From positions 1-49,587 of the forward strand of contig DASQEB010000642.1 in NCBI GenBank assembly GCA_035633875.1: 49,587 nt of DNA, given 5' to 3'. The notes below the pieces were generated by a model. That model saw only the letters and a list, made by a program, of their open reading frames with translations. It was not told the origin of the DNA and did not search any database. Source of the stretch: Thermoanaerobaculia bacterium. Lineage in GTDB: Bacteria > Acidobacteriota > Thermoanaerobaculia > Multivoradales > UBA5704. A program made the translations under genes and the position numbers. Shown piece after piece: positions 4,399-27,045 of the stretch (position 1 is the first letter of the stretch; every line of letters starts with the position of its first letter).

Positions 4399-4406
4399 GG
4401 AGCCTG

Positions 4407-5846: not shown

Positions 5847-5976
5847 CGGGATCGTTCTCCTCTCTCCTCAGGGAATTTTGAGGGCCTCGCGGTCGTGGGC
5901 TTTCAGCAGGGGCGTCCAGGGCATCCAGTCGCGCGGTCTAGAGGGCACGTTGGGCCTCGATCCAGCTCGCGGGAGC

Positions 5977-8900
5977 CTAGCGCGCCTTCCAGGGGATGTC
6001 GAGGACAGCCCGCTCGGGGATCCGGTCTCCCGCCTGGCTGAAGGGGTGGACCTGCCCGGGCCTCTCCCGGTGGTAGGTGAATTCCAGACGGTACTGCCCC
6101 TCCACCAGGGGCGAGCCGCCGAAGGGGAGGAGGACGAACCCGGTCCCGTCCGCCCGGCGCACCACCCGGGGACCGGGGCTGATCAGGGGGACGTGCTCCT
6201 GGGGCGGCACGAAGGTCCGCGCGTGGCCCGCCCCATCCGGGCCCACGACGCGCAGCTCCACTCCTCCGGCCGGGAAGCGGAGACGGCCCGCCTCGCCCAG
6301 GGGGGCGGCGAAGCGGTGCTCCAGATTCCCTTCCGCGGACGACGCTCCGGCCCCTGGGCCGGCGTGGAGGCGGACGCGGGTCCCCGCCGGCCGCCGGTCC
6401 TCGCCGCTGAAGCCGTACCAGGTCGACCACTCCGGCTCGGACGTGCGCACCCCGGTGAAGCGCGTGTCCGGGCTGCCCGCCACGAAGAACCCCAACCGTC
6501 CCGCGGGCAGATCGGCGTCGTCCACCCGGAACAGCTCCATCCCATCCAGCCACCCGGCGAGGCGCTCGCCCACGGCATCGAAGGTGAGGCCGATCTCCCG
6601 GCCCGGCGTCACCGCCACGGTCCCCTGCCAGAGGACGGTCTCCTGTCCCGCGACCCGCTTGGCCATCCGGTGGGACCCGGTCCCGGGGTCGAGGAGGAAG
6701 ACGAAGCAATGGTTGACGTCGAGGAAACGGAACACCGCCCCGGTGAGGCCCGCCACCCCGGGGCGGAGGCGCACCGCCAGCCGGTAGTCGGCCGCGGCGG
6801 GATCTCCCGTCACGGCGATGCGGAGTCCGGAAGGATCGTCCCCCGCCGGGCGCAGCTCTCCATTTTCGGCCGCCCAGCCGTCCGGAAGGGGCTGAGCCGC
6901 ATCCTGGAAATGCCAGCGGCCCGGAACCAGGGCCTGGAACGATTCGTCCAGCCGCCAGCCGGCGAACGCCCGGTCGGCCGGGAACACCCGCACCTCGGAG
7001 AAGAAGGCCGGCTCGTTGCTCCTGGCGTAGAGAGCCAGGAGGCCCGAGGGGATGTCGCCGTCCTCCACCACGAACAAGGGGACACCGTCGAGATACCCTC
7101 GCAGCGAGCTCCCCACGGCCGCCACCGTCAGCTCGTGCGAACGGTCCGTCGCGTAGGAGCCGCCGTCCTGCCACAGCACGGTGACCTCGCCGTTCACCCG
7201 CTTGATGAGCTGCCGGTAGGGCACCTGGGCGTTCATCGAGAACCGGTAATGGTTCCTCAGATCCCGGCCGCGGAAAAGCATGCCGATGGCACCTCCGGCC
7301 GGGCACCGCAGGCGTGCGCGGTAGACCACGTCGGTCCACCCCGGATCTCCGGTGTAGGCGTAGGTGCCGGTGAAGGCGGGGCCGCCCCCCTCCTGGACGA
7401 AGCTCGAAAGACGCAGCTCGCCGCCGACGGTCTCCCAGCTCGAGGGCTGCGTCCCCACGGCCTCGTCGACCCGGCCCCAGCCGGTGAGGTCGCCCGCCGC
7501 GAACCGGTCCTGGACCAGCGCAGAGGCGTCCAGCGACGGCCGGCGCACCTCGACCCCTTCGAACCGCGCGTCCGGATTGGCGCAGGCATAGAGGCCCACC
7601 TGCCCGGCGGCGTGGGTGCCGTCCCGCATCTCGAAAAGCCGGTCGTTTCCCAGGAACCCGGTCAGCCGGGAGCCCACGGCCTCGACCGTGAAACGGAGAG
7701 GCTCGCCCGCCGCGTAACCCTTGTCCTCCTCCCAGAGGATCGAGATCTGCCCCTTCTCGCTCTTGACGAGCCGCCGGTACCGGAGGCCGGCGTCGAGCGA
7801 CAGGCGGTAGTGGTTGTCGCCGTCCACCCAGCGGAAGACCACGCCCACGGTGCTCCCCGCGTCCGAGCGCAGGTCCACGGTGAGCCGGTAGTCCGTCCAG
7901 CCCGGATCGCCGGCCAGCGCCACGGTGCCCGGCAGCTCGGGCTCGGCGCCGCCGCGGATCTCGGAGATCTGGATCAGCGCTCCGCCCTCCACCCGCCAGT
8001 CGGAGGGGCCGCCGACCGTCCCCTGATCCACGACCGTGAAGCGGGCACGGGTGGCGGCCGGATCGCCCTCGAACCGTTCCAGGAGCATTACCGGATCGCC
8101 CGCCGGCTCGGCCAGCACGCCCGGCAGGGCGCGCAGCTCGACGCGATGACGGGAGAGATCCGCAGCCTCGCGCAGGAGCAGGGTGACGGATTCGTCCGCG
8201 GGCAGGGCGGCGCCAAAGGTGGCGTCCGTGAGCTTCACCGCGCCGGGCGGCTGCGGCGCCGGGAGGCGGCGCGCAGTCCCCGAGAGGGCGAGCTCGATGC
8301 GGTCCCAGGCGAAGGGCTCGGGGCTCCGCACCAGGAAGCCGAACGGCGCGCCGTCCCGCTCCAGACGGGTGGCCTCCACCCGCGCCGGGTGCTGCCGCGC
8401 CGCCGCCGGCCCCACCGCCAACTCTGCCAGAGCCTCGTAGGCCCGGGCCTCCTTCTCCTCGGGAGGCGAGAACGAGGGCAGAACCGCCTCGGCCAGCAAC
8501 TCGTCCACGGCCGTGCCCGTGCCCAGGTCGGCCCTCCAGGTCTCGTCCTGGAAGCTGTGAAGATGATGGAAGAAGTTGGCGTAGAGCGACGTGGTGAGCT
8601 GGAAGCGGTAGACCACCGGCGCCGTGACGCGGAAATCGTCCACCCGGACGTCGGTGAAGCGCGCCCCCGGGCTCTGGCAGGTATAGAGGCCGATCCGGCC
8701 GCTCTGGAATGCGTCGTCCTTCACGTCGAAGACCGGCGCGCCGTCCACGGAGACCCGCAGCGACGACCCGAGGCCCTCGAACGACACCAGATAGTCGCGG
8801 TTCTTTCGGTACGCGAAGTGGTCCTCGGCCAGGAGGGTCGCGCCCGGTGGTTCCAGCTTGACGAGCCGCCGCACCCGGCCGTCCAGCGAAAAGCGGTAGC

Positions 8901-11900
8901 CGGTCGCGGGTCCCTGCTGGCGGATCACGACGCCCACGGCCCCGCCGCCGGCCGAGCGGAGGTAGACGCTCACCCGGTAGTCCGTCCACCCGGAAGACCC
9001 CGAAAAGAGCAACAGGGTGCCCGGCCGCTCCGGCGCAGTGATCCCGCCGATCGCCGAGGCCTGTTCCAGGAACCGGGAAGGCGGCTCCCCGATTTCTCCC
9101 ACCTGCCAGCTCGAAGGACCGCCAGGCCCTGCGTCCTCCACGAACCAGCCGGAAGGGGCTTCCCCGAGGGGGCCCGCCGTGAAGCTCTCATGGAGCAGGA
9201 GAGGGACCAGGCGCGGCTCGTAGAGCGTATCCGGGGCGAGCACCCGGCCGGCTCCCGACGACACCAGCGTGCTGTCGCGCGGGAAGGTCTCGGGATCGAG
9301 CTTCTCCGGCAGGCAGGTGGCGCCGTTGATCAGGGTGACCCAGCGCGTGTCCCGCTCGGCAAGGGTGAGCGTTTCCGCCCTCCCCCACCGATTGCCGAGA
9401 ACCAGGAGCCGCCCGTCCGCATCCCGGGCCGGCTGGTTGTTGTTGTCATAGAGATAAAGCCCCAGGTCCCGGCCGTCCATGCGATACATGGTCTCGACAT
9501 AATTTTCGTTGAGCTCCACCCCGACATCGTAGGCGCGGTAGAAAGGACGATAAAGAATGGGTTTCTCCCCCGGCCGCGGCACCGTGGGCGGCGTCGTCTG
9601 CCGCACGTAACGTGTGAGATCGTCGAGCCCGCTGTCGAACGTCTCTTCCGCAGCTCCAACCGGCACGGACAGCGCCGCCAGTCCGGGAGGCCCCTCGGTG
9701 CGGAAGTAGGCGTACTCACGGAGTCCGTTTTTGATCAGCGATCCCGTGGGCATCTGCAGCTCCGCCAGGGTTTCGATCTCGAGCCGGTACTCCGTGTCCG
9801 GCTCCAGAACGGGGGCCTCCTGGCTCCAGCGGGCGAGCTCCTCCCGGATGTGCTGGATCTTCTCCTCGCGCCGCACGGGCCTGTCCGCCTCCGGGTCCGG
9901 CGTGATGCAGATCTGCTCCAGGCAGAGGACCCCGTCGCTCGTCACCAACACCGTATCCACCGGGATGTCCACAGGGATGAAGGTCCCCACCGGGACGAAC
10001 GGGCCTGCCAGGCTGCCGTCCCCCCGAAGGCCGGTCGCGGAGGGACCCGCGGGCTTCGGAGAGACGAAGCAGAGCCGGTGCAGGAGCTTCTCGTTGCCCG
10101 CCGCATGGACCTCCAGCCGGGACATGCCCTCGCCCGTCAGCACGATGGTCTCCGGCCCACCACCTCCCGAGCCTTCCGGTGCGTGGGTGGCGACGAGCGC
10201 ACCTCCCGCATTGAAGGCGAGAACTCGGAACGGTGGCCGGTGCGACACGATCAGCTCCACCCAGGAGACGGAACCGGGCAGGATCACGTCCAGCCTGGAA
10301 CCCGCATTCAACCCGACGGTCTCTTCCGGGCGCCACCGCTCGATCCGCCCCTGGGGCAGCAGCTTGCCATCCGCGCCCCGCACTTCGAAGCGCACCCCCT
10401 GATCGGTCCATGGATTCTCGGCAGTGCCGGCCGGCCGCTGCCGGAAATCCACACACACGCGGGCCACGTCGTCGATCGTGCCGATCACCTTGACATTCGG
10501 GACGGCCGCGGCGGCTGGCGCCGGAAGCGGGGCCTCCTCCCGGGCGAAGACGATGTTGAAAGATCGCGCCGGCTCGGCCGGCTCGATTCGAATGCCCTTC
10601 CGGGAAGCCCGCTCCGGGAAGCAGAGAAGATTCACCGTCCGGGGGGCTCCCCCGACCGGCCGGCTCACCGTCCGCACCGTCGCCGGCCCGAAGCCCCAGG
10701 AAAGGGAGAAACCAGGAGGGCCGGGATGGGTCCAGGGCGACGTCACCTGAGTCCCCGGCGCGAGCGACTCGAAGCCGAAGCAGACCTCCGCGGCAGAGAG
10801 CTGGGGAACGCAGGGATATCCCGGGAATTCCTCCGCGAACCACTCCTCCCACGACGAGCCGCTGCGCCGTAGGAAGGCGAAGGGGTTGAGATTCCAGAGC
10901 CAGAGCTTCGTCTGGGGCACCTTTTCCGGATCGCTCCCCGATGGAAGAGCCGCCCAGGTTCCGAAAAGCGCAGGATGCTTTTCCGAAGGCGGGGCGCTCG
11001 CCACCACCGACCAGGCTGTTCCTGCCTTCTTTGCGAGCTGCACGCGCACCAGGCTGTAGCGAGCCCGAGCCTGACTCCCGCCGCCTCCCGGAAATCCGAT
11101 CGTCTCCCAACCCTCTGGCTCGTGACCGCTGGTTCCGGCCTTGGCCACATCCGAGACCGGCCGCCCGAACGTCAGATGCGGCCGGGCATCGAGCGGAACC
11201 ACGGGGATCGGTTCCAGGGGCGCGTGATCGTGGTCCTTCGCCCCGATAAACCCGCCCCCATCGTCGTAGTTGGGCAGCAACAGCCTCTTCCTGGGAAGCG
11301 GCCAGGCTACCGTGGTCTTGAGGTGCTCGATGGAAACATCCTGGAGCGGCAGGGGGATGGGCAACAGGTCTGGCCGGATGCCCCATTCCAGCCTCACCCT
11401 GGCACCGACCTTCTTCAAAGGCCTGGGCAGCCGCAGCTCGACGCTGAATTCGCCGAGCAGATGGAAGGGAGTGAACACATCCGCCGCAATCCGTGCATCC
11501 ACCGTAAGGCCGAGGCCGAACTTGAAAACCTTGAGGTCGACGAGGCCGTGAAGCCAAAAGGCGCCATGGAAGTGGGTGGGCTTGAAGCTCACCAGGACGT
11601 TGCCCTCGGCCCAGGCCTGGAGAGCGATGCTTAGCGGACCGACCTTCCATGTCCGGTCGTAGCCATACCAGGCGCCCAGGGCGAGCCGCTGCGAGTTCAG
11701 CATGAAGTACGCGTTGGCCTCGACGAAGCGGCCAAACAGAGCGCGGACCCGCAGGTTGCGCGGCTCGTCCCTGCCGATGTTCAGATACCACTTGTCCGGA
11801 TCATCGAAGTCGTAGAACGCCTCCGTGCCGGCCGCGATCTCGATCAACTGTCCCTTCTTGCCCGTCTTGTACTCCGCATCGATGCCGATCGTGAGGCTGG

Positions 11901-13854
11901 ACTCCTGCCCATCGAAGACGGCGAGCGAGCGGAAGAGCCCCTCCTCGGTGCTGTCCGTGCGCTTCTTGAGGATGTTGGCGCTCCCCTGGAGCATGAGGAT
12001 CGGCCCTGGAAAGATCAGGACCAGCAGGAACTTGCCGTTGAAGGCATAGCCGTTGTCGGCGACCGTGGCGAGCGTGAGCCCCGCGCCCAGCGCAAGGCTG
12101 CCCTTGTGAGGCTTCCATTTGTTGGTGATGTCGGTAACGCCAGGCTCTTTGCCGCTGTGGTACCAACTCTGATTGTGGTCGAGACTGAACCACAGATGCT
12201 CCGGCTCCTTGTCCGGCTCCATTTGCAGGGCGAACAGGCCGGCCATGCCGTAAATCGCCAATCCCGTGTTTGCCAGTGGAATGCCGCTGGGGAGATCGGC
12301 GTCGAGATAGATCGCAAAGTAGTTGAACTTGCCTTCCGGTCTCGTGGCCCTGCCGATCACGAGCTTGCCGTCGATGGTCAGCTCGGGCTTTTCCAGCTTG
12401 AGCTTGATGTCGCCGGTGAAGCGCTGGTTCTGTTCCTCGTAGGAGACGGAGCCTTTGGAGGAGAGGACGCCTGGAATCCTGTACTCAATTCCAGCACCTT
12501 TCAGCGTCAGAGATTTTCGGCCATCTGGATACCAGACGATCCGCAACCCTTCGACCGAGGCCCCGGCCTGCAAGCCGTCCACCAGCTTGAGCCCACCCGA
12601 GAAGCCAATGTACTGGCCGCCGTCGTCGGTCTTGCCGAAGCCGAGCTTGGCGATCTCGATCTTGAAGCCGTGGAAATCGAGGGTTCGTTGCTCTGTTACA
12701 TCCAGCCATCCGCCATCGAGGTGGACGTTGCCCTTGGAGTCAATCGAGAGTTCCTTGACGGTGAAGCTGGGCCAATCGAGATCCCCGAAAAGGGGCTTGA
12801 GTTCGCCACTTATCCTGGTGGTGAACACACCGTTTTCGATTTCGAACTCCATCCTGTCGAGCTCAAGACTGAAGAGTCCGGGCTTCTCCAGATTGCGGGC
12901 GCTTCCCTCGCTGCTCAACGCCACCCACAGATCGCCGCCACTCCCGATCCCAACTTCGACCCCGACCTCGCCTTCGAAAAAGGGCAGAGTCAACCGCCCG
13001 GTGAGGTTCGATCGAACCACCGAGTTCTGTCGAAAACCAATTGCCACTTCCTCTAGGACGAACTTGGCACCGAACAGTTCGCCGGCGGGAGGATCGTCCT
13101 GCCAGGTCAAAGCCACCTCTCCAGTGAAGCCGCCGCTGCCGATATAACAGCCCTCCATTACCAAATCCGGAAGTGGGAGATCGAACCCTTCGGGTAGGTG
13201 AACCGTGGCCCGGGCGATGAACACTCCTTGCCATCCCGGACCTACCTCCGAGGGCCGATCCGGAGGCATTTCCGCCTTGGTCGAAAGGATCGGGAGCACC
13301 TCGTGCGCCTCGAGGACCACTCCCGTGTCTGCGATCATCACCGGTGGAAGCTCGAAGCCCCTTTCAACTGCGAACGAGACGTCCCCGTCGCCATCGATCT
13401 CGATCATGCCCCCGATGCCTATCTCCGCGAATTCTTCGGGGATGACCTCCCAGGCGCCCAAAACCTGTCGTACCGGCTTGAGGAGGCTGGGCGCGAAGCG
13501 CAATCCCAGCTTTCCACCAAGCCGAACCGCAAACCTCTCCGGCCCGAGATCGAACTCGCCCACGAGTTCCACCCCATCATGGGAGTTCCCGATAACCAGG
13601 GACACACCCTGCAACCCGACCAGCGGCAAGCTCAGGTCCTGCGCCATTACGAGTGTCACCCGCGCCGTCGCATACCCGGCGGCCCCCTTTGTGGACAGCT
13701 TCTTGATCCCGACAGTCTTGAGAAATTCTACTTCGGGCAAGCTGATCCGATCCAAAGGCAAGAAGGCGAGATCGGAGAGAGACTCGACGACATCGGCAAG
13801 AACCGCTGCACGATGCTTCTTGAAGAACGCTCGAAGTGGTTGGGTAATGGGCAT
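5977..13854 (-). CDS. Giant multidomain protein (2625 aa), function unknown. It has an N-terminal beta-rich region, a shared module and four LamG/DUF1080-like jelly-roll modules.
   Basis: One uninterrupted 7878-nt frame with protein-like composition throughout. It stays open through a low-GC stretch where random frames close quickly. Residues 1-~830 are beta-rich with hydrophobic stretches (LANTGLAIYGMAGLFAL, LLVLIFPGPILMLQG). Residues ~1130-1265 form a module shared with the 1441-aa neighbour. Residues ~1558-2465 hold four ~180-aa modules anchored by GWTDYR-type motifs at nt ~8965, ~7885, ~7336 and ~6781. The N-terminus (MPITQPLRAFFKKHRAAVLADV) has no signal peptide. Confidence 0.85.
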   Translation of the reverse strand: MPITQPLRAFFKKHRAAVLADVVESLSDLAFLPLDRISLPEVEFLKTVGIKKLSTKGAAGYATARVTLVMAQDLSLPLVGLQGVSLVIGNSHDGVELVGEFDLGPERFAVRLGGKLGLRFAPSLLKPVRQVLGAWEVIPEEFAEIGIGGMIEIDGDGDVSFAVERGFELPPVMIADTGVVLEAHEVLPILSTKAEMPPDRPSEVGPGWQGVFIARATVHLPEGFDLPLPDLVMEGCYIGSGGFTGEVALTWQDDPPAGELFGAKFVLEEVAIGFRQNSVVRSNLTGRLTLPFFEGEVGVEVGIGSGGDLWVALSSEGSARNLEKPGLFSLELDRMEFEIENGVFTTRISGELKPLFGDLDWPSFTVKELSIDSKGNVHLDGGWLDVTEQRTLDFHGFKIEIAKLGFGKTDDGGQYIGFSGGLKLVDGLQAGASVEGLRIVWYPDGRKSLTLKGAGIEYRIPGVLSSKGSVSYEEQNQRFTGDIKLKLEKPELTIDGKLVIGRATRPEGKFNYFAIYLDADLPSGIPLANTGLAIYGMAGLFALQMEPDKEPEHLWFSLDHNQSWYHSGKEPGVTDITNKWKPHKGSLALGAGLTLATVADNGYAFNGKFLLVLIFPGPILMLQGSANILKKRTDSTEEGLFRSLAVFDGQESSLTIGIDAEYKTGKKGQLIEIAAGTEAFYDFDDPDKWYLNIGRDEPRNLRVRALFGRFVEANAYFMLNSQRLALGAWYGYDRTWKVGPLSIALQAWAEGNVLVSFKPTHFHGAFWLHGLVDLKVFKFGLGLTVDARIAADVFTPFHLLGEFSVELRLPRPLKKVGARVRLEWGIRPDLLPIPLPLQDVSIEHLKTTVAWPLPRKRLLLPNYDDGGGFIGAKDHDHAPLEPIPVVPLDARPHLTFGRPVSDVAKAGTSGHEPEGWETIGFPGGGGSQARARYSLVRVQLAKKAGTAWSVVASAPPSEKHPALFGTWAALPSGSDPEKVPQTKLWLWNLNPFAFLRRSGSSWEEWFAEEFPGYPCVPQLSAAEVCFGFESLAPGTQVTSPWTHPGPPGFSLSWGFGPATVRTVSRPVGGAPRTVNLLCFPERASRKGIRIEPAEPARSFNIVFAREEAPLPAPAAAAVPNVKVIGTIDDVARVCVDFRQRPAGTAENPWTDQGVRFEVRGADGKLLPQGRIERWRPEETVGLNAGSRLDVILPGSVSWVELIVSHRPPFRVLAFNAGGALVATHAPEGSGGGGPETIVLTGEGMSRLEVHAAGNEKLLHRLCFVSPKPAGPSATGLRGDGSLAGPFVPVGTFIPVDIPVDTVLVTSDGVLCLEQICITPDPEADRPVRREEKIQHIREELARWSQEAPVLEPDTEYRLEIETLAELQMPTGSLIKNGLREYAYFRTEGPPGLAALSVPVGAAEETFDSGLDDLTRYVRQTTPPTVPRPGEKPILYRPFYRAYDVGVELNENYVETMYRMDGRDLGLYLYDNNNQPARDADGRLLVLGNRWGRAETLTLAERDTRWVTLINGATCLPEKLDPETFPRDSTLVSSGAGRVLAPDTLYEPRLVPLLLHESFTAGPLGEAPSGWFVEDAGPGGPSSWQVGEIGEPPSRFLEQASAIGGITAPERPGTLLLFSGSSGWTDYRVSVYLRSAGGGAVGVVIRQQGPATGYRFSLDGRVRRLVKLEPPGATLLAEDHFAYRKNRDYLVSFEGLGSSLRVSVDGAPVFDVKDDAFQSGRIGLYTCQSPGARFTDVRVDDFRVTAPVVYRFQLTTSLYANFFHHLHSFQDETWRADLGTGTAVDELLAEAVLPSFSPPEEKEARAYEALAELAVGPAAARQHPARVEATRLERDGAPFGFLVRSPEPFAWDRIELALSGTARRLPAPQPPGAVKLTDATFGAALPADESVTLLLREAADLSRHRVELRALPGVLAEPAGDPVMLLERFEGDPAATRARFTVVDQGTVGGPSDWRVEGGALIQISEIRGGAEPELPGTVALAGDPGWTDYRLTVDLRSDAGSTVGVVFRWVDGDNHYRLSLDAGLRYRRLVKSEKGQISILWEEDKGYAAGEPLRFTVEAVGSRLTGFLGNDRLFEMRDGTHAAGQVGLYACANPDARFEGVEVRRPSLDASALVQDRFAAGDLTGWGRVDEAVGTQPSSWETVGGELRLSSFVQEGGGPAFTGTYAYTGDPGWTDVVYRARLRCPAGGAIGMLFRGRDLRNHYRFSMNAQVPYRQLIKRVNGEVTVLWQDGGSYATDRSHELTVAAVGSSLRGYLDGVPLFVVEDGDIPSGLLALYARSNEPAFFSEVRVFPADRAFAGWRLDESFQALVPGRWHFQDAAQPLPDGWAAENGELRPAGDDPSGLRIAVTGDPAAADYRLAVRLRPGVAGLTGAVFRFLDVNHCFVFLLDPGTGSHRMAKRVAGQETVLWQGTVAVTPGREIGLTFDAVGERLAGWLDGMELFRVDDADLPAGRLGFFVAGSPDTRFTGVRTSEPEWSTWYGFSGEDRRPAGTRVRLHAGPGAGASSAEGNLEHRFAAPLGEAGRLRFPAGGVELRVVGPDGAGHARTFVPPQEHVPLISPGPRVVRRADGTGFVLLPFGGSPLVEGQYRLEFTYHRERPGQVHPFSQAGDRIPERAVLDIPWKAR

Positions 13855-13871
13855 GGCGTGCTAAGGGACAT

Positions 13872-15419
13872 TCAGAACGAGCGCGGACGGTAAGGGGGAG
13901 GCGGAATCGATTTCTTGTCTCTGCATAGTCCCTGTGGATCTATGATCTTGTTATAGAACGGAATCGGCAGATTGGAGAGCATAGTCGTCAAGGTGGAGAG
14001 CTCAAATGGGTCGTCGAGCTCGACAAAGTGCCGCTTTGCCCGGACGCCGGCAAGCTGTGATCGCTCCTTCCATTGTTCAAACCCGGCGACAGGATCCACT
14101 GCTATCTCAGAGGGATCTAGGCCCAGGTGCTCGGCCCAGAGTCTCAGCCTGAGTTCACGCGCGAAACGACAATGGTTTCCGTCCGGGGTCAGAATCGCAT
14201 CGATCATGGAAAGAGAAATCTCCTGGTCGTGAGTCATGCTTCTCCGGTTCATGTTCATGGAACCGATCTCTACCCAAACATCATCGACAATCACCGTCTT
14301 GGAGTGGACATAGATAGACGCGTCCTGAAGTGCTGGATTCCGGAGTTGGAAAATAGCAAACCTTCCTTCGGCCGCCCTCAGGATCTGTTCTATCAAAAGC
14401 CCCTGGTGCGGCTTCATATATATAGCGGCAATAGCGTTGTCGGGCTCTGGAGGGACTACTACGATGATACGCAACTCCGGGTGCAATGCGAGCGACAGGA
14501 GAAGCGCATCGGCCACTTCGTTAGAGACGAAATATTGGTCTTCGATGTAAATGTATTCCCGGGCCAGGTTGATCGCCTTCAGCACAGCATTTCTTGCGGT
14601 GAACTCGCCGAACGGTGCGAACGGATAGCGATTCTGTGGATTCGATCTGCACGCGTAGGTTCTCAGCACTTGAACGTGCAGCGCTCCACCACCGACTGCC
14701 AGAGCATCACACTGCCTTTCGATTTTCTCCGGAGGATTATCGAGGGAGCTCGGATCGTGAGGATCGTTCCACCTCTCAAGGAAGGTGGCCTCCAAATCGC
14801 AGCATACCGGGCCGAGGAGACGGCAGTGCACATCATGCCATCCACCTTTGTAGGCATCCTTGGTGGGTTGGCGATCCTCCTCGGCAGCAGGATGGCCGGA
14901 CTCGTCATACCGGTTCAGCGCCAAATCAATACCTCCGCAGAACCCATGCAACGTCTTGCTGCCACCATCGTGGTTGATGAGGATCAAAAGAATTTTCTGG
15001 TGAGGCGTTCCAGCTAACGGTTGGCGCCGGTCGATGATACAGGTGATTCCAAGCGTGTCCAGGTATTCGCAGACCTCCTCGTTGTCGGTGGCCAGGTCTC
15101 CCGAGAGGAGGATTCGTACGTATACACCCCTACTATGTGCAGCCTCCAATAGCTTGCCAATTTGGCTGTCTTTCTTCTGCTGCTCCGTGAATTCGCTTCC
15201 TCCCAGAAGACGCAGGTCCAGCGACAGCTCCAGTCCGGCCAGATAGATGTAATCTCCGACCCTCGTCGCACGGATCAGGTCATGGACGTCTTTCATGTAC
15301 TCCTTGGCATCGACGTAAGGGATCACGACATTGTTCGAGGTAAAAGCTGGAAGACCACGAGAGCCGATCTCGTCAGGGCTCAAGAACCAGTCTTGCGGCT
15401 CTGTGCTGAAGGGTGGCAT
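13872..15419 (-). CDS. Phospholipase D superfamily protein with two HKD motifs (eukaryotic-type PLD signature)
   Basis: 515 aa. HKD-1 is TPHQKILLI...GFCGGIDLALNRYD. HKD-2 is IYVHSKTVIVDDVWVEIGSMNMNRRS, a canonical HxKxxxxD...GSxN. A strong AGGAGG lies 6 nt before the ATG. The gaps to the flanking giant ORFs are 12 nt and 17 nt. No signal peptide. Confidence 0.9.
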   Translation of the reverse strand: MPPFSTEPQDWFLSPDEIGSRGLPAFTSNNVVIPYVDAKEYMKDVHDLIRATRVGDYIYLAGLELSLDLRLLGGSEFTEQQKKDSQIGKLLEAAHSRGVYVRILLSGDLATDNEEVCEYLDTLGITCIIDRRQPLAGTPHQKILLILINHDGGSKTLHGFCGGIDLALNRYDESGHPAAEEDRQPTKDAYKGGWHDVHCRLLGPVCCDLEATFLERWNDPHDPSSLDNPPEKIERQCDALAVGGGALHVQVLRTYACRSNPQNRYPFAPFGEFTARNAVLKAINLAREYIYIEDQYFVSNEVADALLLSLALHPELRIIVVVPPEPDNAIAAIYMKPHQGLLIEQILRAAEGRFAIFQLRNPALQDASIYVHSKTVIVDDVWVEIGSMNMNRRSMTHDQEISLSMIDAILTPDGNHCRFARELRLRLWAEHLGLDPSEIAVDPVAGFEQWKERSQLAGVRAKRHFVELDDPFELSTLTTMLSNLPIPFYNKIIDPQGLCRDKKSIPPPPYRPRSF

Positions 15420-15431
15420 TCCAGTCCTCCT

Positions 15432-18400
15432 CTAGAGCTCGAATGAAGCGACGCCGATTTCCTCGTAAAGAACATTCACGAGGCCCTGAGCGTTTCGAAC
15501 CTTCAAGCGATAGCGATTCTCAATCTCGTTGATTGCAGTCTCATCCATATGCTGCATGACGGTGGCCGGCAACCAGGTCGAAACCGGTCTCCAGCCGCCC
15601 GCCATCCGCCGCAGAACCATAACTTCAAGCGGCTCGGCGGGTGACGACCAAGCCATCTGGACGGACTTCCCGTCGGAGGTCCATTCGGCCGAGATCCAGC
15701 TCAGAGGCATAGGAGGCCTTTGGTCGTAAGCTTGTGCCGAGGCAACTCGGGAGGGAGGAGAGGCGTTCACCTCTGCGTCTATCACTACCACTCGGTAGCA
15801 GTAGAGCTGAAGTGGCTCGACCGACGTATCGGTCCAGTGGTCTGCCAGAGGTTCCCCCGCTTCGCTGGACGTCATCAAATGCACCAAAGCCATCCGACGC
15901 ACGTCCTCAGCATCTCTTCGGGTATGTGCACGGTAAACGTGGAGCTCTCGAAGGGCCGGTCCTCTGTCCAAGGCCCATCGGATCGTGATTGTCCTCTCAC
16001 CTCCGAAAATCCCTGTAATCACCGGCGCCGGCGGCTCCACCTTCGGCAGATAAACCGGCGGCGTCGAGGGGCTCAAACCGCTCCGATTGTGGGCGCCGTC
16101 CACGAAGGCGGCACGGTAGAAGTAGCGATTGGTGGCCCTGCCTGGCAGGGTGTCCATGTAGGCGCGGACGGTTGGTTTCGGCGTGTAGTCGGCAGCATCG
16201 TCGGGTAGACGCCGATCCTGGACCTCGGGGTCGGTGTCGTCCAAGGGCTGAAGAGTGATCTGGGTGAATGCATCTTCGTTTCCCGGCAGACCGGCCAGGA
16301 TTCGGAGCGCGGAGTCCGAGAGGGTGCGGTAATCGTCCGGTGATTTGACGTCCACCAAACCGGAATTGCGTGTCTGGCGGATCTCCCAGTCGCGCTCCTT
16401 CAGAGCTTTCCGATCCCCAGCGCCTTCGTTGCCCGACAGGAGGGCCAGGACCTTCCAGGTGTTCTCCGAAAGGGAGTCGTAACCCGCTGGCGAGGTGATC
16501 TTATTCAACTCGGTCACCGCGGCCTGCCGCGTGGCCAAATCCCAACCATCGGGAAAGAGGTCCTGGTGCTTCTCGGGGTCCAGCGCCTCCCGCGTCTCCC
16601 GGATCAGCCAGTCCCGCTGGAACAGGCTGTCGTCCAACGCCCGCAAGACGTGCGTCTTGAGGTGCGGCCGCGGTTTCCACCGGAAGGAGAAGAACGAGCG
16701 GCTGTGGTAGTCCGCCCGGGTTGCCCACAGCCTGCCGCCGGGATAGTCCGCGAGCTCGGGCGGCTCCGGCGGGGTCTGGAGGACGCGGTAGATCGCGGCC
16801 GGCGGGCTCACCCTTCCCTCATTTCCGAAACGGTTCCCCAGAGGCGGGGCGCCCCACTTCGGGTCGTCCCCGGTGTGGATCTTGTCGTCCGCGGCGCTGA
16901 CGCCGATCTGGGCGAAGACGGTGGGACGTTCGAGGGTGGGACGGAATGGCTCGCCTTCTTTCAGGTCCGGCGCGGGGAGGAAGGTTTCGTAGATCCGCAC
17001 GGGCCGGCCGATCGTCCAGGGTGACGAGTTTCCGCCCAGGTCAGGCTCGCCGTCCAGGGTGACGGTGTGGAACTTGGGATCCACCTCTTCGATCCGGTAG
17101 GTCTTGCCGGGACGGGCAGTGTCGCTTGCCAGATACAGGTGGTCGAGCCAGGGCTGGAGGCCCGAGAGATCCACGTCCGGAGGGAAATGGGCAATCCCGC
17201 CGGCGACCGTGACCCCGGCGTTTTTGAAGGTCTCGGCGTCCAGGGGCCGATTCTCGGGGTCCCGGGAGGGCTCGATTCCCTCCTCCACCGCGTCGGCGTA
17301 GAGGACCACGGCGAGGCGCTTCGCCCAGTTGGCCGGCTGCCGGAGGTGGTCAAGGCCGATCTCGCCGGGAAGCTCGTTCAGGCGGCCAGGAATGTAATAG
17401 ATCCGGAACTCCCGGGTGTCCGGCGCCTGATTCATCTGGGACAGAGTCCATTTCCAGCGGACGCGCAGGCCGACGACATCCGGGTTCCTGTCCCGCCACT
17501 TCTCGTAGGGACTGTCCCGTAAAACCCAGCGGTCGAGTGGATCGAGGGCGGCAGCCTCGAGTCCGGTTGGATTCGGTGGAGGGATCTTGTCGAGCAGGGC
17601 CACCGCAAAGGAGTGAATCGGACGGTGGCCCGGGGCATCCTTCCTGTAGTACCACGGGAGTTCTTGGCCTGCCGGCGGATCCCACTGGTACCACTCGGCC
17701 GGCGGCCCCAGCGGGCTGCGGCGGCCGAAGAGGTCCTGACCCAGAACGCGATAGCTGTACCAGCCCTCGGCCAGGCCGGTGTCGATGACGCGGAGGGGAA
17801 CGGATGCGGGGGGCCACTCCGGGGAGCGGCGCGTCTCGCCGGGCGTGAGCGGCGGGGGCGGAGCCGCCGGCTCAGCGAGGACGACCGCCGAGGAGTCCGA
17901 GCCGTCCTCAGGGTCCGGCCGGAGGGGTTTGTACGCGTCGTCCGGAGGTACCTCCGCTGGCTCCTCTCCCGGCTCCTTGATCCCCAGGAAGGCCCGCCGC
18001 GGATAGTAGAGCACGGGGATGTTCGTCTCTTCCGTGGCTCCGGCCGACGGATCGGGAGGCGCTTCCCACCAAAGACCCACGTTGATCTGGGCGTCGTTCA
18101 ACTTGCCGTCCTGGGCACGGGTAGTGGCGCCGGGAAGGGCATAGACGCGGGCTTTTCCGGGCGGCGGCAGGGGAGGCGCGGGCGCGACGGTCTTGCCGAG
18201 GACGAGCCAGGCGTCCACGGCGTTCGCGTCCGGCTGGAAGGCGAGCCAGTCCAGAGCCGTGGAGGCGCTGCCGCCGAGGACGCCGGTGGGGTCGGCCAGG
18301 AGGAGGTAGTCATAGGGGATCCCAGGCTCGGCCGAGGAGTCCAGGAAGTAGAGGCCGAGCATCTGGGCGATGGCCGGGTGGAGGCTCGCCAGCAGGAGGA

Positions 18401-19757
18401 GGTCGAGGCAACGCTGATTCTCCAACCGGAAGGGCTCGGAGTCCGGCGCCGGCCCGAGGGGATCTCCCAGCAGCGTGGGGATGACGCGATTCGCCATGGG
18501 ACCGCCGCCGGGACCTCCCTTCACCAGGATCTCCAGCTGGCCATGGAGATCAGGGAAGGCATCCTCCCATCTCGCGGGCTCGCCGTAGATGATGCGCGAC
18601 AGGGCCAACTCCCGCGCTGCCGCGAAAGTCGCGGGTTTGCCCAGGCAGGGATAGTCCTTCTGCTCGACCGGTAGGCAGAGGGGGTACCGGAAGCCGGGGA
18701 CCTCGCCCCAGCCCCAGGTCTCACCCTGGCGGGTCGGCCAGACGCAGAGATCCAGGAGAGCCCCCTTGCCGGGACCGATCTCCACGGCGGTGAGCTCGTT
18801 GCCCTGCAGCGTGACCGCGACCGCCTCTCCGGCGTTCCCCCGGGCCAGGGCACGGCTCGCGACCGAGGTCCCGGCCAGGACGCGGATCTCGATCTCCGCC
18901 CCTTCCTCCGCCGTTCCGCCTGCCGGGCATTCCCAGCAGATCTCGTGGAGCAGGGCGGGATCAACGGTGGAGCTCGCCAGGACGACCCGGGCGAGAGCCT
19001 TGCCGGTCAGCGTCACGGTGCCGGTTTGGAGGGCCAGGGGCTGGAATTGCCGGATGTCGGCTCTCGCGCCGTCCCCCTCGAAGGCCGCGATCGTCAGCTC
19101 TCCCCGATTGGTGAGGAGCAGATCGATGCGGGTGGCCGGGCAGGGGAGATCAATTTCGAGCTGGCGGCTGGTCTGGAGCCCTGGGGGCGTGCCGTTCCAC
19201 TGCTCGATGAGCGTGTGGATCAGCGGCGGGCTCACCGGAGGGATTTCTGTCTGGAAGACGGCCCCCTTTGTCTCCCGGCCCCCCATGGTCGCGCCGAGCG
19301 GCTCGCGACGGAAATCGGCACATGTCCGGACGGTCCGGGGTCCTTCGGAGCGGAGGCCCACTCGGACGTCCACCCGCCGGACCTGAACGCCCGGCGTGAG
19401 ATCGAAACGCAGGGGCGCACCCTGATCAAGATCGACCCCGACCGTGCCAGACGGCGAAAATTCGTCCGTAAAGATCAGGCGCCGGGTGCTGCTCAGGAGG
19501 CCGAGGCGCGTCTCCAGCCCGGTACCGCGGGACGATCCGGGACGCAAGCCGCCGAGAAACGGGCTCAGGCAAAGCGGACGCCGCGGCTGGCTCTCCCGCC
19601 GGAAGAGATAGAACCCGTGCCAGGGGAACCCCCGCTCTGGGGCGAAGATCCACCGGCAGTGGAGGCCGTTGCGCAGGCGCGGGTGATCCTCGTCCGGCGG
19701 CTTGTCGTCCAGGATGCCCAGGACGAGCATCGCCAGATCGTCGGTCTGGAAACTCAT
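15432..19757 (-). CDS. Large multidomain protein (1441 aa), function unknown, with C-terminal FN3-like modules
   Basis: 4326-nt open frame. The N-terminus MSFQTDDLAMLVLGILDD has no signal peptide. Residues ~140-275 form a module homologous to residues ~1130-1265 of the 2625-aa protein. There are internal FN3-like endings (EGWYSYRVLGQDLFGRRSP). Two C-terminal FN3-like modules are visible (ITIRWALDRG...LYCYRVVVIDAEVNASPPS and SVQMAWSSPAEPLEVMVLRR...YRLKVRNAQG). Confidence 0.85.
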   Translation of the reverse strand: MSFQTDDLAMLVLGILDDKPPDEDHPRLRNGLHCRWIFAPERGFPWHGFYLFRRESQPRRPLCLSPFLGGLRPGSSRGTGLETRLGLLSSTRRLIFTDEFSPSGTVGVDLDQGAPLRFDLTPGVQVRRVDVRVGLRSEGPRTVRTCADFRREPLGATMGGRETKGAVFQTEIPPVSPPLIHTLIEQWNGTPPGLQTSRQLEIDLPCPATRIDLLLTNRGELTIAAFEGDGARADIRQFQPLALQTGTVTLTGKALARVVLASSTVDPALLHEICWECPAGGTAEEGAEIEIRVLAGTSVASRALARGNAGEAVAVTLQGNELTAVEIGPGKGALLDLCVWPTRQGETWGWGEVPGFRYPLCLPVEQKDYPCLGKPATFAAARELALSRIIYGEPARWEDAFPDLHGQLEILVKGGPGGGPMANRVIPTLLGDPLGPAPDSEPFRLENQRCLDLLLLASLHPAIAQMLGLYFLDSSAEPGIPYDYLLLADPTGVLGGSASTALDWLAFQPDANAVDAWLVLGKTVAPAPPLPPPGKARVYALPGATTRAQDGKLNDAQINVGLWWEAPPDPSAGATEETNIPVLYYPRRAFLGIKEPGEEPAEVPPDDAYKPLRPDPEDGSDSSAVVLAEPAAPPPPLTPGETRRSPEWPPASVPLRVIDTGLAEGWYSYRVLGQDLFGRRSPLGPPAEWYQWDPPAGQELPWYYRKDAPGHRPIHSFAVALLDKIPPPNPTGLEAAALDPLDRWVLRDSPYEKWRDRNPDVVGLRVRWKWTLSQMNQAPDTREFRIYYIPGRLNELPGEIGLDHLRQPANWAKRLAVVLYADAVEEGIEPSRDPENRPLDAETFKNAGVTVAGGIAHFPPDVDLSGLQPWLDHLYLASDTARPGKTYRIEEVDPKFHTVTLDGEPDLGGNSSPWTIGRPVRIYETFLPAPDLKEGEPFRPTLERPTVFAQIGVSAADDKIHTGDDPKWGAPPLGNRFGNEGRVSPPAAIYRVLQTPPEPPELADYPGGRLWATRADYHSRSFFSFRWKPRPHLKTHVLRALDDSLFQRDWLIRETREALDPEKHQDLFPDGWDLATRQAAVTELNKITSPAGYDSLSENTWKVLALLSGNEGAGDRKALKERDWEIRQTRNSGLVDVKSPDDYRTLSDSALRILAGLPGNEDAFTQITLQPLDDTDPEVQDRRLPDDAADYTPKPTVRAYMDTLPGRATNRYFYRAAFVDGAHNRSGLSPSTPPVYLPKVEPPAPVITGIFGGERTITIRWALDRGPALRELHVYRAHTRRDAEDVRRMALVHLMTSSEAGEPLADHWTDTSVEPLQLYCYRVVVIDAEVNASPPSRVASAQAYDQRPPMPLSWISAEWTSDGKSVQMAWSSPAEPLEVMVLRRMAGGWRPVSTWLPATVMQHMDETAINEIENRYRLKVRNAQGLVNVLYEEIGVASFEL

Positions 19758-19887
19758 GGCCCCCCTTGCGCCGGAGAGGAACCCTCCACTCCGGCCCTGA
19801 TCGGGTCGCGCTAACGGCTTTTGGCCAGGGTACGCTGGATGGGGCCGTTGATCAACCTTATCTATTCAACCGAATATTGAGCAGTGC

Positions 19888-20982
19888 TCATCCCTCCGCG
19901 AACGGCTCGAAGGCGGCGCTGGCCTCCGCGGCCAGGGCTGCGACGAGATCGGCGGCGGACCGGGGGGAGGCCAGGGGCGCCGACTGGCCGCCGTAGAACG
20001 GCAGGAGATCGTCGCGGCCGGCGCGGGTCGCCGCATAGCGAAGCTCCCGAGTGAGCTCGTTCTGGTGCGGGTAGGGGAGGATTTCGAAGGGAGGACGGGC
20101 CATCTCGTCCGCGACGCGGTTGGCGAGCATCCGCGCCAGACGCCCGGTGTAGGCCCGGGTGAGGGCCGTGCGCCGCGCGCGGGCACGGTCGGCGAGGGCC
20201 GCGCGGTGGAGCTCGCTCGCTCCGGACTCCCGGCACATCAGGAAGGCCGTGCCGATCTGCGCCGCCGCGGCGCCCAGGACCAACGCAGCCGCGACGCCGC
20301 GGCCGTCAGCGATGCCGCCCGCAGCCAGGACCGGGACCCGCACGGCGCTCACGACCTGGGGGACGAGCGACAGCGTCCCGGTGAGCGACTGCTCCGCGGG
20401 ACGGAGGAAGCTCCCGCGGTGCCCCCCGGCCTCGAACCCGGACGCGCACACGAAGTCGACGCCGCTCTCCTCCAGGGCCTCCGCCTCCTCGACCGTCGTC
20501 GCGGTGCCGATCAGCGCGATCCCCCGCCGGCGCGCCTCCTCCACCAGCGGCGCGGGCAGCAATCCGAAGATGAAGCTGAAGACCGCCGGTCGCGCCTCGA
20601 GCACGGCCTCGAACTGCCGCTCGAAATTCTGCACGGTGGGCGCCGGGGGCTGGGCGAGCGGCGGCAGCCCGAGCTCGTCCCGGTACGGCTGGAGACGCGC
20701 CAAAGCCCGGCCGGCCTCGGATGGATCCAGGTTCACGCCGTCCTCCCGCTCGCGGGGGATCCAGAGGTTGAGGGCGAACGGCTCGGCCGTCAGGCGCCGG
20801 ATGTCGGCCGCGGTCTGCAGGATCGCCTCGGGCTCCAGGTGATAGCAACCGAACGATCCCAGCCCGCCCGCGTTCGAGACGGCCGCCACCAGCTCGGGAG
20901 TCGATGCGCCGCCCCCCATCGGCCCCTGCACGATCGGATAGCGGCGGCCGAACCGCTCCGTGAACCGGGTGTTTGTCCACAT
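19888..20982 (-). CDS. Nitronate monooxygenase (NMO / 2-nitropropane dioxygenase family, FMN-dependent)
   Basis: MWTNTRFTERFGRRYPIVQGPMGGGASTPELVAAVSNAGGLGSFG...IAAGGIADGRG. I chose the start at 20982 because GAAAGGAG lies 7 nt upstream. The track start at 21000 is inside that RBS. Confidence 0.9.
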   Translation of the reverse strand: MWTNTRFTERFGRRYPIVQGPMGGGASTPELVAAVSNAGGLGSFGCYHLEPEAILQTAADIRRLTAEPFALNLWIPREREDGVNLDPSEAGRALARLQPYRDELGLPPLAQPPAPTVQNFERQFEAVLEARPAVFSFIFGLLPAPLVEEARRRGIALIGTATTVEEAEALEESGVDFVCASGFEAGGHRGSFLRPAEQSLTGTLSLVPQVVSAVRVPVLAAGGIADGRGVAAALVLGAAAAQIGTAFLMCRESGASELHRAALADRARARRTALTRAYTGRLARMLANRVADEMARPPFEILPYPHQNELTRELRYAATRAGRDDLLPFYGGQSAPLASPRSAADLVAALAAEASAAFEPFAEG

Positions 20983-21027
20983 CGGAAAGCTCCTTTCCAT
21001 CGGGGGCGGGCCCCGCCCTGGGGAACC

Positions 21028-23692: not shown

Positions 23693-24294
23693 GCGTTCCC
23701 CCGGGGCTCCGACCGGCCGCCCTTGGTCATCACCAGGATGCGCCAGCCGATCTGCTTGAGCTTGCCCAGGATGACGGTCATGTTGCCGGCCAGCACCTTG
23801 CCGTTGGTGAAGTGCTCGACCACGCGATAGGTGGCGCCGGCGCGGCTGCCGCCAACGTGGACGATCTGGAGTTGGCTGACCTCCACCTGGCGCGGAGAGA
23901 ACGGCGGGAACTCCCGCAGGATCTCCTGGAACTGTGGGCTCGACATCCATTTGTCCACAATGGCCTGATCGATCATCACCAGTCCCTCGGAGGTGACCGA
24001 CAGGTGGGGGTCCGCGGCAAACTCCCGCCACCGTTGCTGCATCTGGTCCCAGGGCAGGGACTCCAGGCCGAGGATCAGGGTTTCGATCTCCTGGTCGTCC
24101 TGCGGATGAGTGGGGAGACCGTCGTTGACGAGGTCGTGCTCGGCGATGGGAATGCAGACCGCCGCGACGCCCACGGTGCGCGTCAGCCCACCGGCGGGCT
24201 CCAGGTGAAGGCCGAGCTCCCCGGCGGCCTCGTCGAAGGCCCGCTGGAGCGATTTTTCGCGGTCCTGCACTGACTCGTGCTTTTCATTGTTCAC
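23689..24294 (-). CDS. Hypothetical protein (201 aa). The C-terminal half may have an NTF2/SnoaL-like fold.
   Basis: Balanced, protein-like composition (MNNEKHESVQDREKSLQRAFDEAAGELGLHLEP...QVEVSQLQIVHVGGSRAGATYRVVEHFTNGKVLAGNMTVILGKLKQIGWRILVM). It is the first gene of the co-directional YcaO/TfuA run. The fold guess is by eye only. Confidence 0.6.
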   Translation of the reverse strand: MNNEKHESVQDREKSLQRAFDEAAGELGLHLEPAGGLTRTVGVAAVCIPIAEHDLVNDGLPTHPQDDQEIETLILGLESLPWDQMQQRWREFAADPHLSVTSEGLVMIDQAIVDKWMSSPQFQEILREFPPFSPRQVEVSQLQIVHVGGSRAGATYRVVEHFTNGKVLAGNMTVILGKLKQIGWRILVMTKGGRSEPRGNA

Positions 24295-24445
24295 AGAAAA
24301 GCCCTCCCATTCAGAAGAAGATAGATTGTGGAAGCCGCGGGAGCATATCTGCGCCGCACCGGGTTTGTCGAGCCACGGCTGCTGGTTGCGCGCTGGAAAG
24401 GCCCCCGGTAAGATCCCTTCGTCCTCCCCGGACCTCAGTCCAGGT

Positions 24446-27004: not shown

Positions 27005-27045
27005 TCGTGTAGACTCTCCGCGGGCGTGGAACGTAAGAAACTGCG

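Follow-up and report, generated by a model that had tools for sequence, protein, structure and literature searches.

Two giant proteins and an exchangeable middle gene make up a widespread three-gene cassette

What kind of system is formed by two giant proteins that lack recognizable enzymatic motifs and a eukaryote-type phospholipase D (PLD) encoded between them, on the same strand and almost without gaps? The question is raised by a 49,587-nt contig of a Thermoanaerobaculia bacterium (assembly GCA_035633875.1, contig DASQEB010000642.1; the whole stretch is referred to below as the window). A first-pass annotation made from the letters alone had pointed to three minus-strand open reading frames (ORFs) separated by 12 and 17 nt and to an arrangement that it could match with no nameable system. 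The three genes, here called A, PLD and B, lie exactly where they were placed (12 nt between A and PLD, 17 nt between PLD and B), and Pfam, NCBIfam, PADLOC, PHROGs, the PDB and Foldseek likewise assign neither giant to a characterized system. What the three genes represent is a single copy of a three-gene cassette, A-cargo-B, which is widespread and horizontally mobile. In this cassette A is obligately paired with B, the gene that they enclose can be exchanged, and the cargo protein bears a common N-terminal domain or peptide as its mark. The existence and modular logic of this new kind of system are well supported; its cellular role we infer.

A cassette is taken to be an A-family giant and a DUF6603-family giant (B) encoded together with one or two variable genes between them, and this is what A-PLD-B of the window presents. 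Loci were collected by searching with an A profile in one genome per species of the Genome Taxonomy Database (75 loci), and from metagenomic neighbourhoods. Wherever more than ~3 kb of sequence is available downstream of A, a B homologue follows 0.9-4.6 kb after it (63 of 63 loci), and the 18 loci that show A only all end within 2.7 kb of A. The synteny that had been proposed as a check on the giant-PLD-giant arrangement is thus borne out, as regards A followed by B, in at least nine bacterial phyla. Carriers belong to the Acidobacteriota, Chloroflexota (including Nitrolancea hollandica), Bacteroidota, Verrucomicrobiota, Gemmatimonadota, Actinomycetota (Arthrobacter oryzae, Gordonia rhizosphera, Solirubrobacter), Bacillota (Paenibacillus ginsengarvi, P. 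mendelii), Myxococcota (Sorangium), Alphaproteobacteria (including the amoeba symbiont Ca. Paracaedibacter symbiosus) and others. A and B remain paired when the order of genes is permuted: one locus reads A-X-B with an X of 1054 aa (L088), and another reads B-A-X with an X of 799 aa (L089). No extra gene, immunity-like or other, is conserved beside the cassette in the neighbourhoods of its relatives, and the short gaps leave no room for an immunity gene inside the unit.

The cassette is also plasmid-borne. A-PLD-B is found on plasmids of the endofungal bacteria Mycetohabitans rhizoxinica and M. endofungorum, these plasmids being conjugative. On pBRH02 of M. rhizoxinica HKI 454 (L090; NC_014723.1, 131310-143854; genes RBRH_RS15915, RBRH_RS15910 and RBRH_RS16630), A (1322 aa), PLD (509 aa; RBRH_03371) and B (2337 aa) follow one another in the same order as in the window, with A 33% and B 38% identical to the window proteins. 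This triad has been noted in passing, as a possible type IV secretion system substrate, under the words 'three large hypothetical proteins', one of them with a PLD domain (Lackner et al. 2011, PMC3102044). Literature searches for the cassette, its locus tags and its accessions found that genome paper only, and no experimental study. (The pBRH02 copy is flanked by toxin-antitoxin (TA) modules, IS21, group-II-intron-type reverse transcriptase genes and an integrase; its host is culturable and genetically tractable.) Elsewhere, some copies are fragmented or lie beside insertion sequence (IS) elements, integrases or TA modules; in decaying copies (L012, L009/L010, L071, L084, L038, L077) A or B is split, or truncated beside DDE transposases. 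An origin in phages was considered and rejected: tblastn finds no match to the cassette in 50,697 phage genomes.

A remote variant is found in an archaeon. Plasmid pHM300 of Haloferax mediterranei (L091; NC_017943.1, 263347-276460) encodes a B-like protein of 1858 aa, an A-like protein of 1370 aa (E 7.5e-27 with the hidden Markov model of the family) and, third, a protein of 1142 aa that contains a Baseplate_J domain (PF04865, E 2e-12). A Baseplate_J partner occurs in this variant alone. The third gene of the B-A-X locus is weakly similar to the Haloferax Baseplate_J protein (E 4e-6), and its N-terminus matches a cargo family (U3). The Haloferax gene is a hint that the cassette and baseplate modules may be evolutionarily linked; neither sheath nor tube genes occur in its surroundings. 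The halocin H4 gene lies ~10 kb away.

The most telling property of the cassette is the exchangeability of its middle gene. The first-pass annotation needs correction here, in that PLD is not a fixed component. BLAST clustering delimits nine or more classes of cargo that replace one another, and PLD, as one of them, occupies the middle position in ~40% of loci. PLD cargo comprises 23 PLD-domain genes and a PLD fragment (in L071), and the BLAST cluster of 28 to which they belong also includes the window PLD and three non-PLD proteins (L002 family). The other classes include a family of 13 members (U13) with C-terminal SGNH/GDSL blocks (GDSW...GGND...DEMH) and a weak Lipase_GDSL match; a family of eight members with a sub-threshold SLT match; TIG/beta-helix proteins; a NAGPA phosphodiester glycosidase; ~310-aa proteins with a metzincin-type HEFGHxxGLxD motif; a Nal1-like serine protease; and several families that clustering delimits and that have no annotation. 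At least four cargo classes occur inside the one Thermoanaerobaculia clade that is closest to the window, where the A proteins are 47-59% identical.

Two cassettes may share a genome. One metagenome-assembled genome (MAG) of the Blastocatellaceae holds two (L043, L086), as does one of the Herpetosiphonaceae (L058, L063). The Blastocatellaceae pair carries different cargo, and the difference between cassettes of single genomes is that between a 700-aa class without annotation and a long PLD. In one cassette, two divergent PLD cargo genes stand in tandem (L058:8372-11967).

Otherwise dissimilar cargo proteins have a beginning in common. In six cargo families that are distinct by BLAST, the N-terminal ~180-215 aa form a homologous domain (hhalign probability 83-98%). 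A shorter signature, aromatic-x-x-Pro at residues 5-20, is present in 26 of 52 cargo N-termini and in seven of nine families, as compared with 4.6% of interior windows (the pattern having been defined post hoc). Examples are FYLPV, FATPV, FFVPL and WFLP (e.g., L014:14647-17070, L035:7793-10435); the window PLD has DWFLSP, and its first 25 residues may constitute a docking peptide.

The class of cargo is also reflected in the adjoining ends of both giants. The test compared all pairs of loci, regressing identity on that of the B backbone (aa 201-1100) and evaluating the residual by permutation. Residues 1-200 of B are 35.0% identical between loci with the same cargo and 25.1% identical between loci with different cargo (residual 0.090; p = 0.0005); for residues 1241-1441 of A, the corresponding values are 40.9% and 35.2% (residual 0.048; p = 0.0005). 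The backbone reference itself stands at 50.0% vs 46.9%. Of the two control segments, aa 451-850 of B retain a small same-cargo effect (residual 0.015; p = 0.009) and aa 1-135 of A have none (-0.017; p = 0.995). Correlating PLD identity with A and B region identities across the PLD loci did not separate the regions. To judge by these alignments, the C-terminus of A and the N-terminus of B evidently co-evolve with cargo class. The base composition of the window agrees with this: GC content is 0.56-0.62 over 11-17 kb, compared with ~0.70 in the flanks, a dip that takes in PLD together with the 3' end of A and the 5' end of B, the very ends that co-vary with cargo. It is as if the central low-GC segment had been imported as one unit.

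The cargo in the window matches Pfam PLDc_2 at 9e-16 (58 bits vs a cut-off of 27) and PLDc at 3e-5. Its best relatives in the PDB are plant PLDalpha1, PldA, which is a type VI secretion system (T6SS) effector of Pseudomonas aeruginosa (second-best, E 8e-14; structure 7V53, PMC9550806), and human PLD1/2. Both catalytic His/Lys pairs are intact, placing the protein in the dual-HKD PLD superfamily, and the eukaryote-type elements GGID165L..RYD and GSMN389 are present, so that the first description of this enzyme stands. The first motif (HQKILLIL) keeps its His and Lys and is without the canonical Asp position. Among 24 cargo PLDs, the first motif retains H in 24, K in 23 and D165 in 24, and the second retains H in 24, K in 23, D in 24 and N in 23. 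The first-pass annotation had offered a lipase or a nuclease. The lipase half of that suggestion holds up, and a nuclease is far less likely, because the enzyme is dual-HKD and of eukaryote/Tle5 type, not Nuc type; to go by its closest solved relatives (PLDalpha1, PldA, PLD1/2), it probably acts on phospholipids. Stand-alone relatives (~35% identity) exist in Cryobacterium. The enzyme family is therefore not restricted to the cassette, and cargo enzymes appear to have been recruited from general pools.

Giant A, together with its homologues, constitutes a family of its own (84 clusters at 90% identity; with a single-sequence query, 751 clusters at 50% identity among 1.84 billion representatives). 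It has no match in Pfam, NCBIfam, PADLOC or PHROGs. The conserved N-terminal domain is not signal-like, and its GFPWxGFYLFRR motif, used as a search pattern, retrieves 100 relatives. No 19-aa window has a mean Kyte-Doolittle hydropathy above 1.6, and no signal peptide is seen. An AlphaFold2 (AF2) model of aa 1-1200 (predicted local distance difference test score, pLDDT, 85; predicted template-modelling score, pTM, 0.62) consists of a string of beta-sandwiches, an alpha/beta region and a helical domain; against the PDB, Foldseek finds for it only generic matches to carbohydrate-binding modules (CBMs), jelly rolls and the Vip3 C-terminus (template-modelling score, TM, <= 0.10). The C-terminal FN3 pair matches titin, myomesin and gp130 by profile. 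The module that A shares with B is cross-matched reciprocally in most relatives and missing from some homologues (e.g., L037, L050). In two loci (L007, L008), insertion of a right-handed beta-helix (DUF1565/NosD/Beta_helix; the L007 gene is at 4077-10751) brings A to 2224 aa, and Pfam detects BACON or lamin-tail (LTD) domains in other A or B homologues among 30 family members. The accessory binding modules are thus shuffled from homologue to homologue.

Giant B has two Pfam domains, DUF6603 and DUF1080, and no enzymatic domain; NCBIfam, PADLOC and PHROGs searches are empty, apart from a non-significant PHROGs match to a tail chaperone (E 0.04). DUF6603 (PF20248) passes its gathering score at aa 446-628 (E 1.8e-8; 33.9 bits vs a cut-off of 27), where the model covers a fraction of an all-beta region of ~800 aa. 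Homologues of B carry PF20248 and are annotated as 'DUF6603 domain-containing protein'; the family is without functional annotation, and DUF6603, PF20248 and IPR046538 are mentioned in no paper found. Mean hydropathy exceeds 1.6 only at aa 604-611, internally and not at the N-terminus, in a beta-hairpin with an invariant P616, where conservation reaches 90% or more at G617, P618, G624 and L629. The alignment of the most conserved core has invariant F95, G99, Y127 and W201, among others (alignment numbering), and its profile finds no relative in the PDB. The four DUF1080/LamG-like repeats match one another with E values of 1e-14 to 7e-38. Foldseek with aa 1-1100 returns nothing from BFVD and, from the PDB, only LptD, ushers, SlpA and the ApoB100 beta-belt at TM 0.10-0.14. 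These matches, like the CBM/jelly-roll matches of A, were rejected as homology, being generic and at TM <= 0.14. Over A, the N-terminus and core of B, and cargo family U13, sequence and profile searches of the PDB yield only the FN3 and CBM66-like matches. Family libraries and hydropathy scans thus agree with the first description of the giants as devoid of enzymatic motifs and N-terminal signal peptides, and the modules that it listed are all there: FN3-like (the pair in A), LamG/DUF1080-like (the four repeats of B) and one common to both. A word-indexed protein search with aa 1-1100 of B gave no homologue longer than ~1900 aa, although the loci hold B proteins of 2400-3100 aa; the collection also lacks the exact sequence of the window's B, and very long proteins may be under-represented in it or called with other starts.

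Table 1. Features of the cassette and neighbouring genes in the window
Feature	Position	Strand	Residues	Remarks
Gene A	15432..19757	-	1441 aa	First giant; ATG start; conserved family without Pfam model
PLD gene (middle gene, cargo)	13872..15419	-	515 aa	ATG start; dual-HKD, eukaryote-type phospholipase D
Gene B	5977..13854	-	2625 aa	Second giant; ATG start; DUF6603 family
Intergenic region upstream of A	19758..19887	-		130 nt, including an AT-rich stretch
A, N-terminal conserved domain	19353..19757	-	1-135	Invariant H33, P45, G48, R53; motif GFPWxGFYLFRR (alignment)
A, beta-sandwich module shared with B	18924..19334	-	142-278	BLASTP vs B 1130-1266: 25% identity, E 7e-8
A, helical domain	16293..16634	-	1042-1155	AF2 secondary structure
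A, C-terminal FN3 pair	15435..16085	-	~1225-1441	Profile vs PDB, E down to 5e-7; co-varies with cargo class
PLD, N-terminal peptide	15345..15419	-	1-25	D-W-F-L-S-P motif
PLD, first catalytic motif	14925..15002	-		H140-x-K142 ... GGID165
PLD, second catalytic motif	14238..14306	-		H372-S-K374-xxxx-D379 ... GSxN389; regular-expression match
B, variable N-terminal region	13255..13854	-	1-200	Tracks cargo class
B, all-beta region	11326..13713	-	48-843	~45 long strands; AF2 pLDDT 81.5, pTM 0.51
B, hydrophobic beta-hairpin	11971..12045	-	604-628	GKFLLVLIFPGPILMLQGSANIL; nearly invariant; modelled strands 605-615, 619-628
B, beta-sandwich module shared with A	10057..10467	-	1130-1266	BLASTP vs A 142-278
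B, most conserved core	9175..9987	-	1290-1560	60-73% identity to close relatives
B, DUF1080/LamG-like repeat 1	8575..9192	-	1555-1760	PDB levanase CBM66 match aa 1614-1728, E 1e-3; repeat-to-repeat E 1e-14 to 1e-30
B, DUF1080/LamG-like repeats 2-4	6415..8082	-	1925-2480	Pfam PF06439 aa 2122-2290, E 1.9e-8; GDPGWTDY motifs
B, C-terminal domain	5980..6414	-	2481-2625	Conserved only in closest relatives, 46-73% identity
Central low-GC segment	11000..17000			GC 0.56-0.62
MacB-type ABC permease	1747..4398			Not conserved beside relatives of the cassette
Nitronate-monooxygenase-like gene	19888..21000	-		Directly 5' of the cassette
TfuA-domain protein	21028..22740	-	570 aa	
YcaO cyclodehydratase	22553..24031	-		Start uncertain
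ORF	23689..24294	-	201 aa	No Pfam match
Ser/Thr kinase-TPR protein, then radical SAM/SPASM enzyme	24287..28341	+	905 aa; 431 aa	
Second PLD-superfamily gene	42489..43754	+	421 aa	PLDc_2 2e-43; cardiolipin-synthase-like; beside an amine oxidase gene

That A, PLD and B are real genes follows from their abundant homologues and from codon-position GC content (0.81-0.84 at third positions vs ~0.50 at second positions). In the NCBI records, A is HYO16921.1 ('hypothetical protein') and PLD is HYO16920.1. An AGGAGG Shine-Dalgarno sequence lies 7 nt 5' of the PLD start codon. The three-gene unit is likely to have its promoter in the intergenic region 5' of A; a simple scan for sigma-70 elements shows nothing convincing there, and a promoter and terminator scan of the DNA gives counts no higher than the shuffled expectation.

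The remaining genes of the window have ordinary functions. By Pfam, the flanks encode nitronate monooxygenase, TfuA and YcaO upstream and AHSA1/SRPBCC, DoxX and YCII proteins downstream, all unrelated to the cassette; unrelated genes also separate it from the MacB-type permease. Apart from the cassette, 20 large ORFs of the window were scanned, and domains of sheath, tube, baseplate, VgrG, Rhs or Tc type are absent from them, as had been noted from the outset, and T6SS, VgrG and PAAR domains are absent from all 23 large ORFs scanned. A YcaO-TfuA pair is typically seen in the thioamide-forming modification of peptides, and this cluster is not conserved beside relatives of the cassette. The kinase-TPR and radical SAM/SPASM genes may be a peptide-maturation pair, and the second PLD-superfamily gene, unrelated to the cargo PLD, presumably has a housekeeping function.

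What would two giants and an exchangeable enzyme do together? The reading that we tentatively prefer, at a little short of an even chance, is that the cassette specifies a new complex for delivery or presentation of polymorphic effectors aimed at the envelopes of foreign cells. The first-pass annotation had suggested a scaffold or delivery apparatus, and this idea gains support from the swappable middle gene and from the A and B ends that track the cargo; function as such we infer. As a mechanism, two giant non-enzymatic proteins would cooperate with one interchangeable hydrolytic effector, whose N-terminus would dock on the cargo-matched C-terminus of A and N-terminus of B. The assembled A/B complex would keep the effector harmless in the producer, and such sequestration would explain why there is no immunity gene. 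Release from the producer would be by a non-Sec route. The four lectin-like DUF1080 repeats of B, together with the modules that relatives carry (BACON, LTD, beta-helix, CBM-like), would bind glycans on another cell, and the DUF6603 beta-region with its hydrophobic hairpin would engage the target membrane. The effector would then attack envelope lipids, proteins or glycans, these being phospholipids in the case of the window. Such a complex would deliver polymorphic toxins in a way analogous to Tc toxins or to the loading of T6SS effectors, without being homologous to either.

A bolder version of this proposal is distinctly more doubtful. It holds that A, B and the middle gene may represent an unrecognized class of toxin delivery machine, unrelated to Tc toxins, contractile injection systems (CIS), Rhs and contact-dependent inhibition (CDI) toxins or the effectors of secretion systems. 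Folded hydrolases would be loaded through a shared N-terminal adaptor onto cargo-matched A and B ends, and the targets would be the envelopes of competing microbes or of eukaryotic hosts. The machine would have to work in monoderms as well as diderms, and would have relatives in haloarchaea.

Several considerations weigh against a delivery complex. No signal peptide and no gene for secretion, lysis or injection is linked to the cassette, so that export is entirely hypothetical, and delivery is putative for every member of the family. At the level of fold, AF2 with Foldseek ties neither giant to any pore-former or to a translocator (TM <= 0.14), and the B model has a pTM of only 0.51. Several cargo families are unannotated; the labels SGNH, SLT-like and M78-like are based on motifs or on matches below threshold; the N-terminal cargo motif is a post hoc pattern; and the pairs that enter the co-variation test are phylogenetically non-independent. 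Moreover, it is just as typical of anti-phage systems inside the cell to have interchangeable effectors that share an adaptor.

This last point leads to an alternative that is unlikely and still deserves a hearing: abortive infection, in which A and B would be giant sensors or scaffolds and, once infection has begun, would set free or switch on an interchangeable suicide effector inside the cell (PLD or GDSL lipase acting on the membrane, or proteases). Intracellular action would make a signal peptide and an immunity gene unnecessary, and none of the three proteins has an export signal. The cassette is accessory and mobile, with plasmids, TA modules, integrases and IS elements in its surroundings. 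One relative (L088) lies beside Mks/Wadjet-like genes, another (L011) beside Hypoth_Ymh and caspase-like genes, and the window PLD matches the DrmC (26.6 bits) and MkoC (10 bits) models across the HKD motif only; the DISARM and Mokosh partners DrmA/B/E and MkoA/B are not present. On the other hand, PADLOC has no match for A or B, and no defence system of PADLOC-DB v2 is represented by a signature protein with its partners. The PLD is of the lipid-type dual-HKD kind, nearest to plant and human PLD and to a T6SS toxin. NAGPA, beta-helix/TIG and possibly SLT-like cargos act on extracytoplasmic glycans, and the lectin, CBM, BACON, LTD and FN3 modules of A and B are typical of extracellular binding proteins. 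The flanks of the window are metabolic and do not form a defence island.

Those same modules invite a second alternative, which we consider somewhat less probable than defence: a non-toxic extracellular or cell-surface scaffold, cellulosome-like, combining binding modules with one hydrolase for nutrient acquisition or attachment. Carbohydrate-binding-type modules are indeed many (DUF1080 four times, CBM66-like, BACON, LTD, beta-helix, FN3), the cargo is always hydrolase-like, and most carriers are soil heterotrophs. Against this reading, the three proteins have no signal peptide, anchor, or sortase or type IX secretion signal in monoderm or diderm carriers, and the N-terminus of A is conserved in a way that does not resemble a signal. 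PLD, GDSL lipase and metzincin fit an attack on membranes and proteins better than foraging for polysaccharides, and the cassette is sporadic, plasmid-borne, often pseudogenized, and present also in intracellular symbionts of fungi and amoebae. It is very improbable that A and B are peripheral baseplate or fibre-like parts of a degenerate or accessory phage-tail or contractile-injection module whose particle is encoded elsewhere: the Baseplate_J gene on pHM300, the weak likeness to it of the third gene of L089 (with its U3-like N-terminus) and the resemblance of exchangeable A/B modules to those of receptor-binding proteins are set against the absence of sheath, tube, spike, gp25 and PAAR genes from the window, from beside more than 60 relatives and from near the Haloferax locus, the lack of matches in phage genomes, and Foldseek searches (A against the PDB, B against the PDB and BFVD) that retrieved no baseplate proteins.

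If the delivery reading is right, the cassette adds a phylum-spanning family of toxin systems (hundreds of 50%-identity clusters) without homology to known ones, and offers a modular, reprogrammable delivery scaffold. The shared adaptor and the matched A and B ends constitute the type of interface that is already used for engineered delivery with Photorhabdus virulence cassettes (PVCs) and Tc toxins. Testable functions are provided for DUF6603, for the A family and for several unannotated effector families, and cultured carriers make the function of the cassette directly accessible to experiment. It may bear on how soil bacteria, predators (Sorangium, relatives of Herpetosiphon) and fungal or amoebal symbionts (Mycetohabitans, Ca. 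Paracaedibacter) meet other cells. If anti-phage defence is the right reading, this is an unusually large and previously unlisted defence system.

It remains to place the cassette among known systems. The pBRH02 triad is the same A-PLD-B cassette, set in a conjugative plasmid of an endofungal betaproteobacterium instead of a chromosome-like acidobacterial contig. With the T6SS effectors of the Tle5 type (PldA and PldB of P. aeruginosa), the window shares the class of cargo, a eukaryote-like dual-HKD PLD. It differs in that the window PLD is half the size of PldA and set between A and B, and in that no T6SS, VgrG, PAAR or Tli5-like immunity gene is near the cassette; genes of contractile injection systems in general (extracellular CIS, T6SS, tailocins) are found neither in the window nor in the neighbourhoods of its relatives. 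The likeness to polymorphic toxins (Rhs, CDI, MuF, type VII secretion system LXG proteins) and to adaptor-marked T6SS effectors is one of organization: a toxic part that is exchanged rapidly is joined to a conserved part associated with delivery, effectors that are unrelated carry the same N-terminal domain as a mark, and a genome may hold several loci with differing payloads. In contrast to those toxins, the cassette has no known trafficking domains and no adjacent immunity genes, and its unit of exchange includes the adjoining ends of two giant genes.

Toxin complexes (Tc) resemble the cassette in several respects. They, too, are composed of multi-gene giants without signal peptides, with an exchangeable beta-sandwich component for receptor binding, a variable enzymatic payload, no immunity gene and a sporadic, mobile distribution, and for both it is proposed that the producer keeps the toxic enzyme sequestered. 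Gene order and protein sizes differ, and there is no similarity of sequence or fold: TcA-type VRP1, TcdA/TcdB pore and neuraminidase-like domains, and the RHS, YD and SpvB domains of TcB/TcC, have no Pfam or NCBIfam match here, Foldseek returns no Tc structures, and the beta-region of B matches no RHS cocoon in the PDB. The payload of a Tc toxin is a hypervariable C-terminus that is cleaved within the RHS cocoon, whereas that of the cassette is a separate, full-length folded enzyme with an N-terminal adaptor of its own. Tc toxins and adaptor-marked polymorphic effectors can thus be thought of as the closest functional counterparts of the A-cargo-B cassette, apparently by analogy and not by homology.

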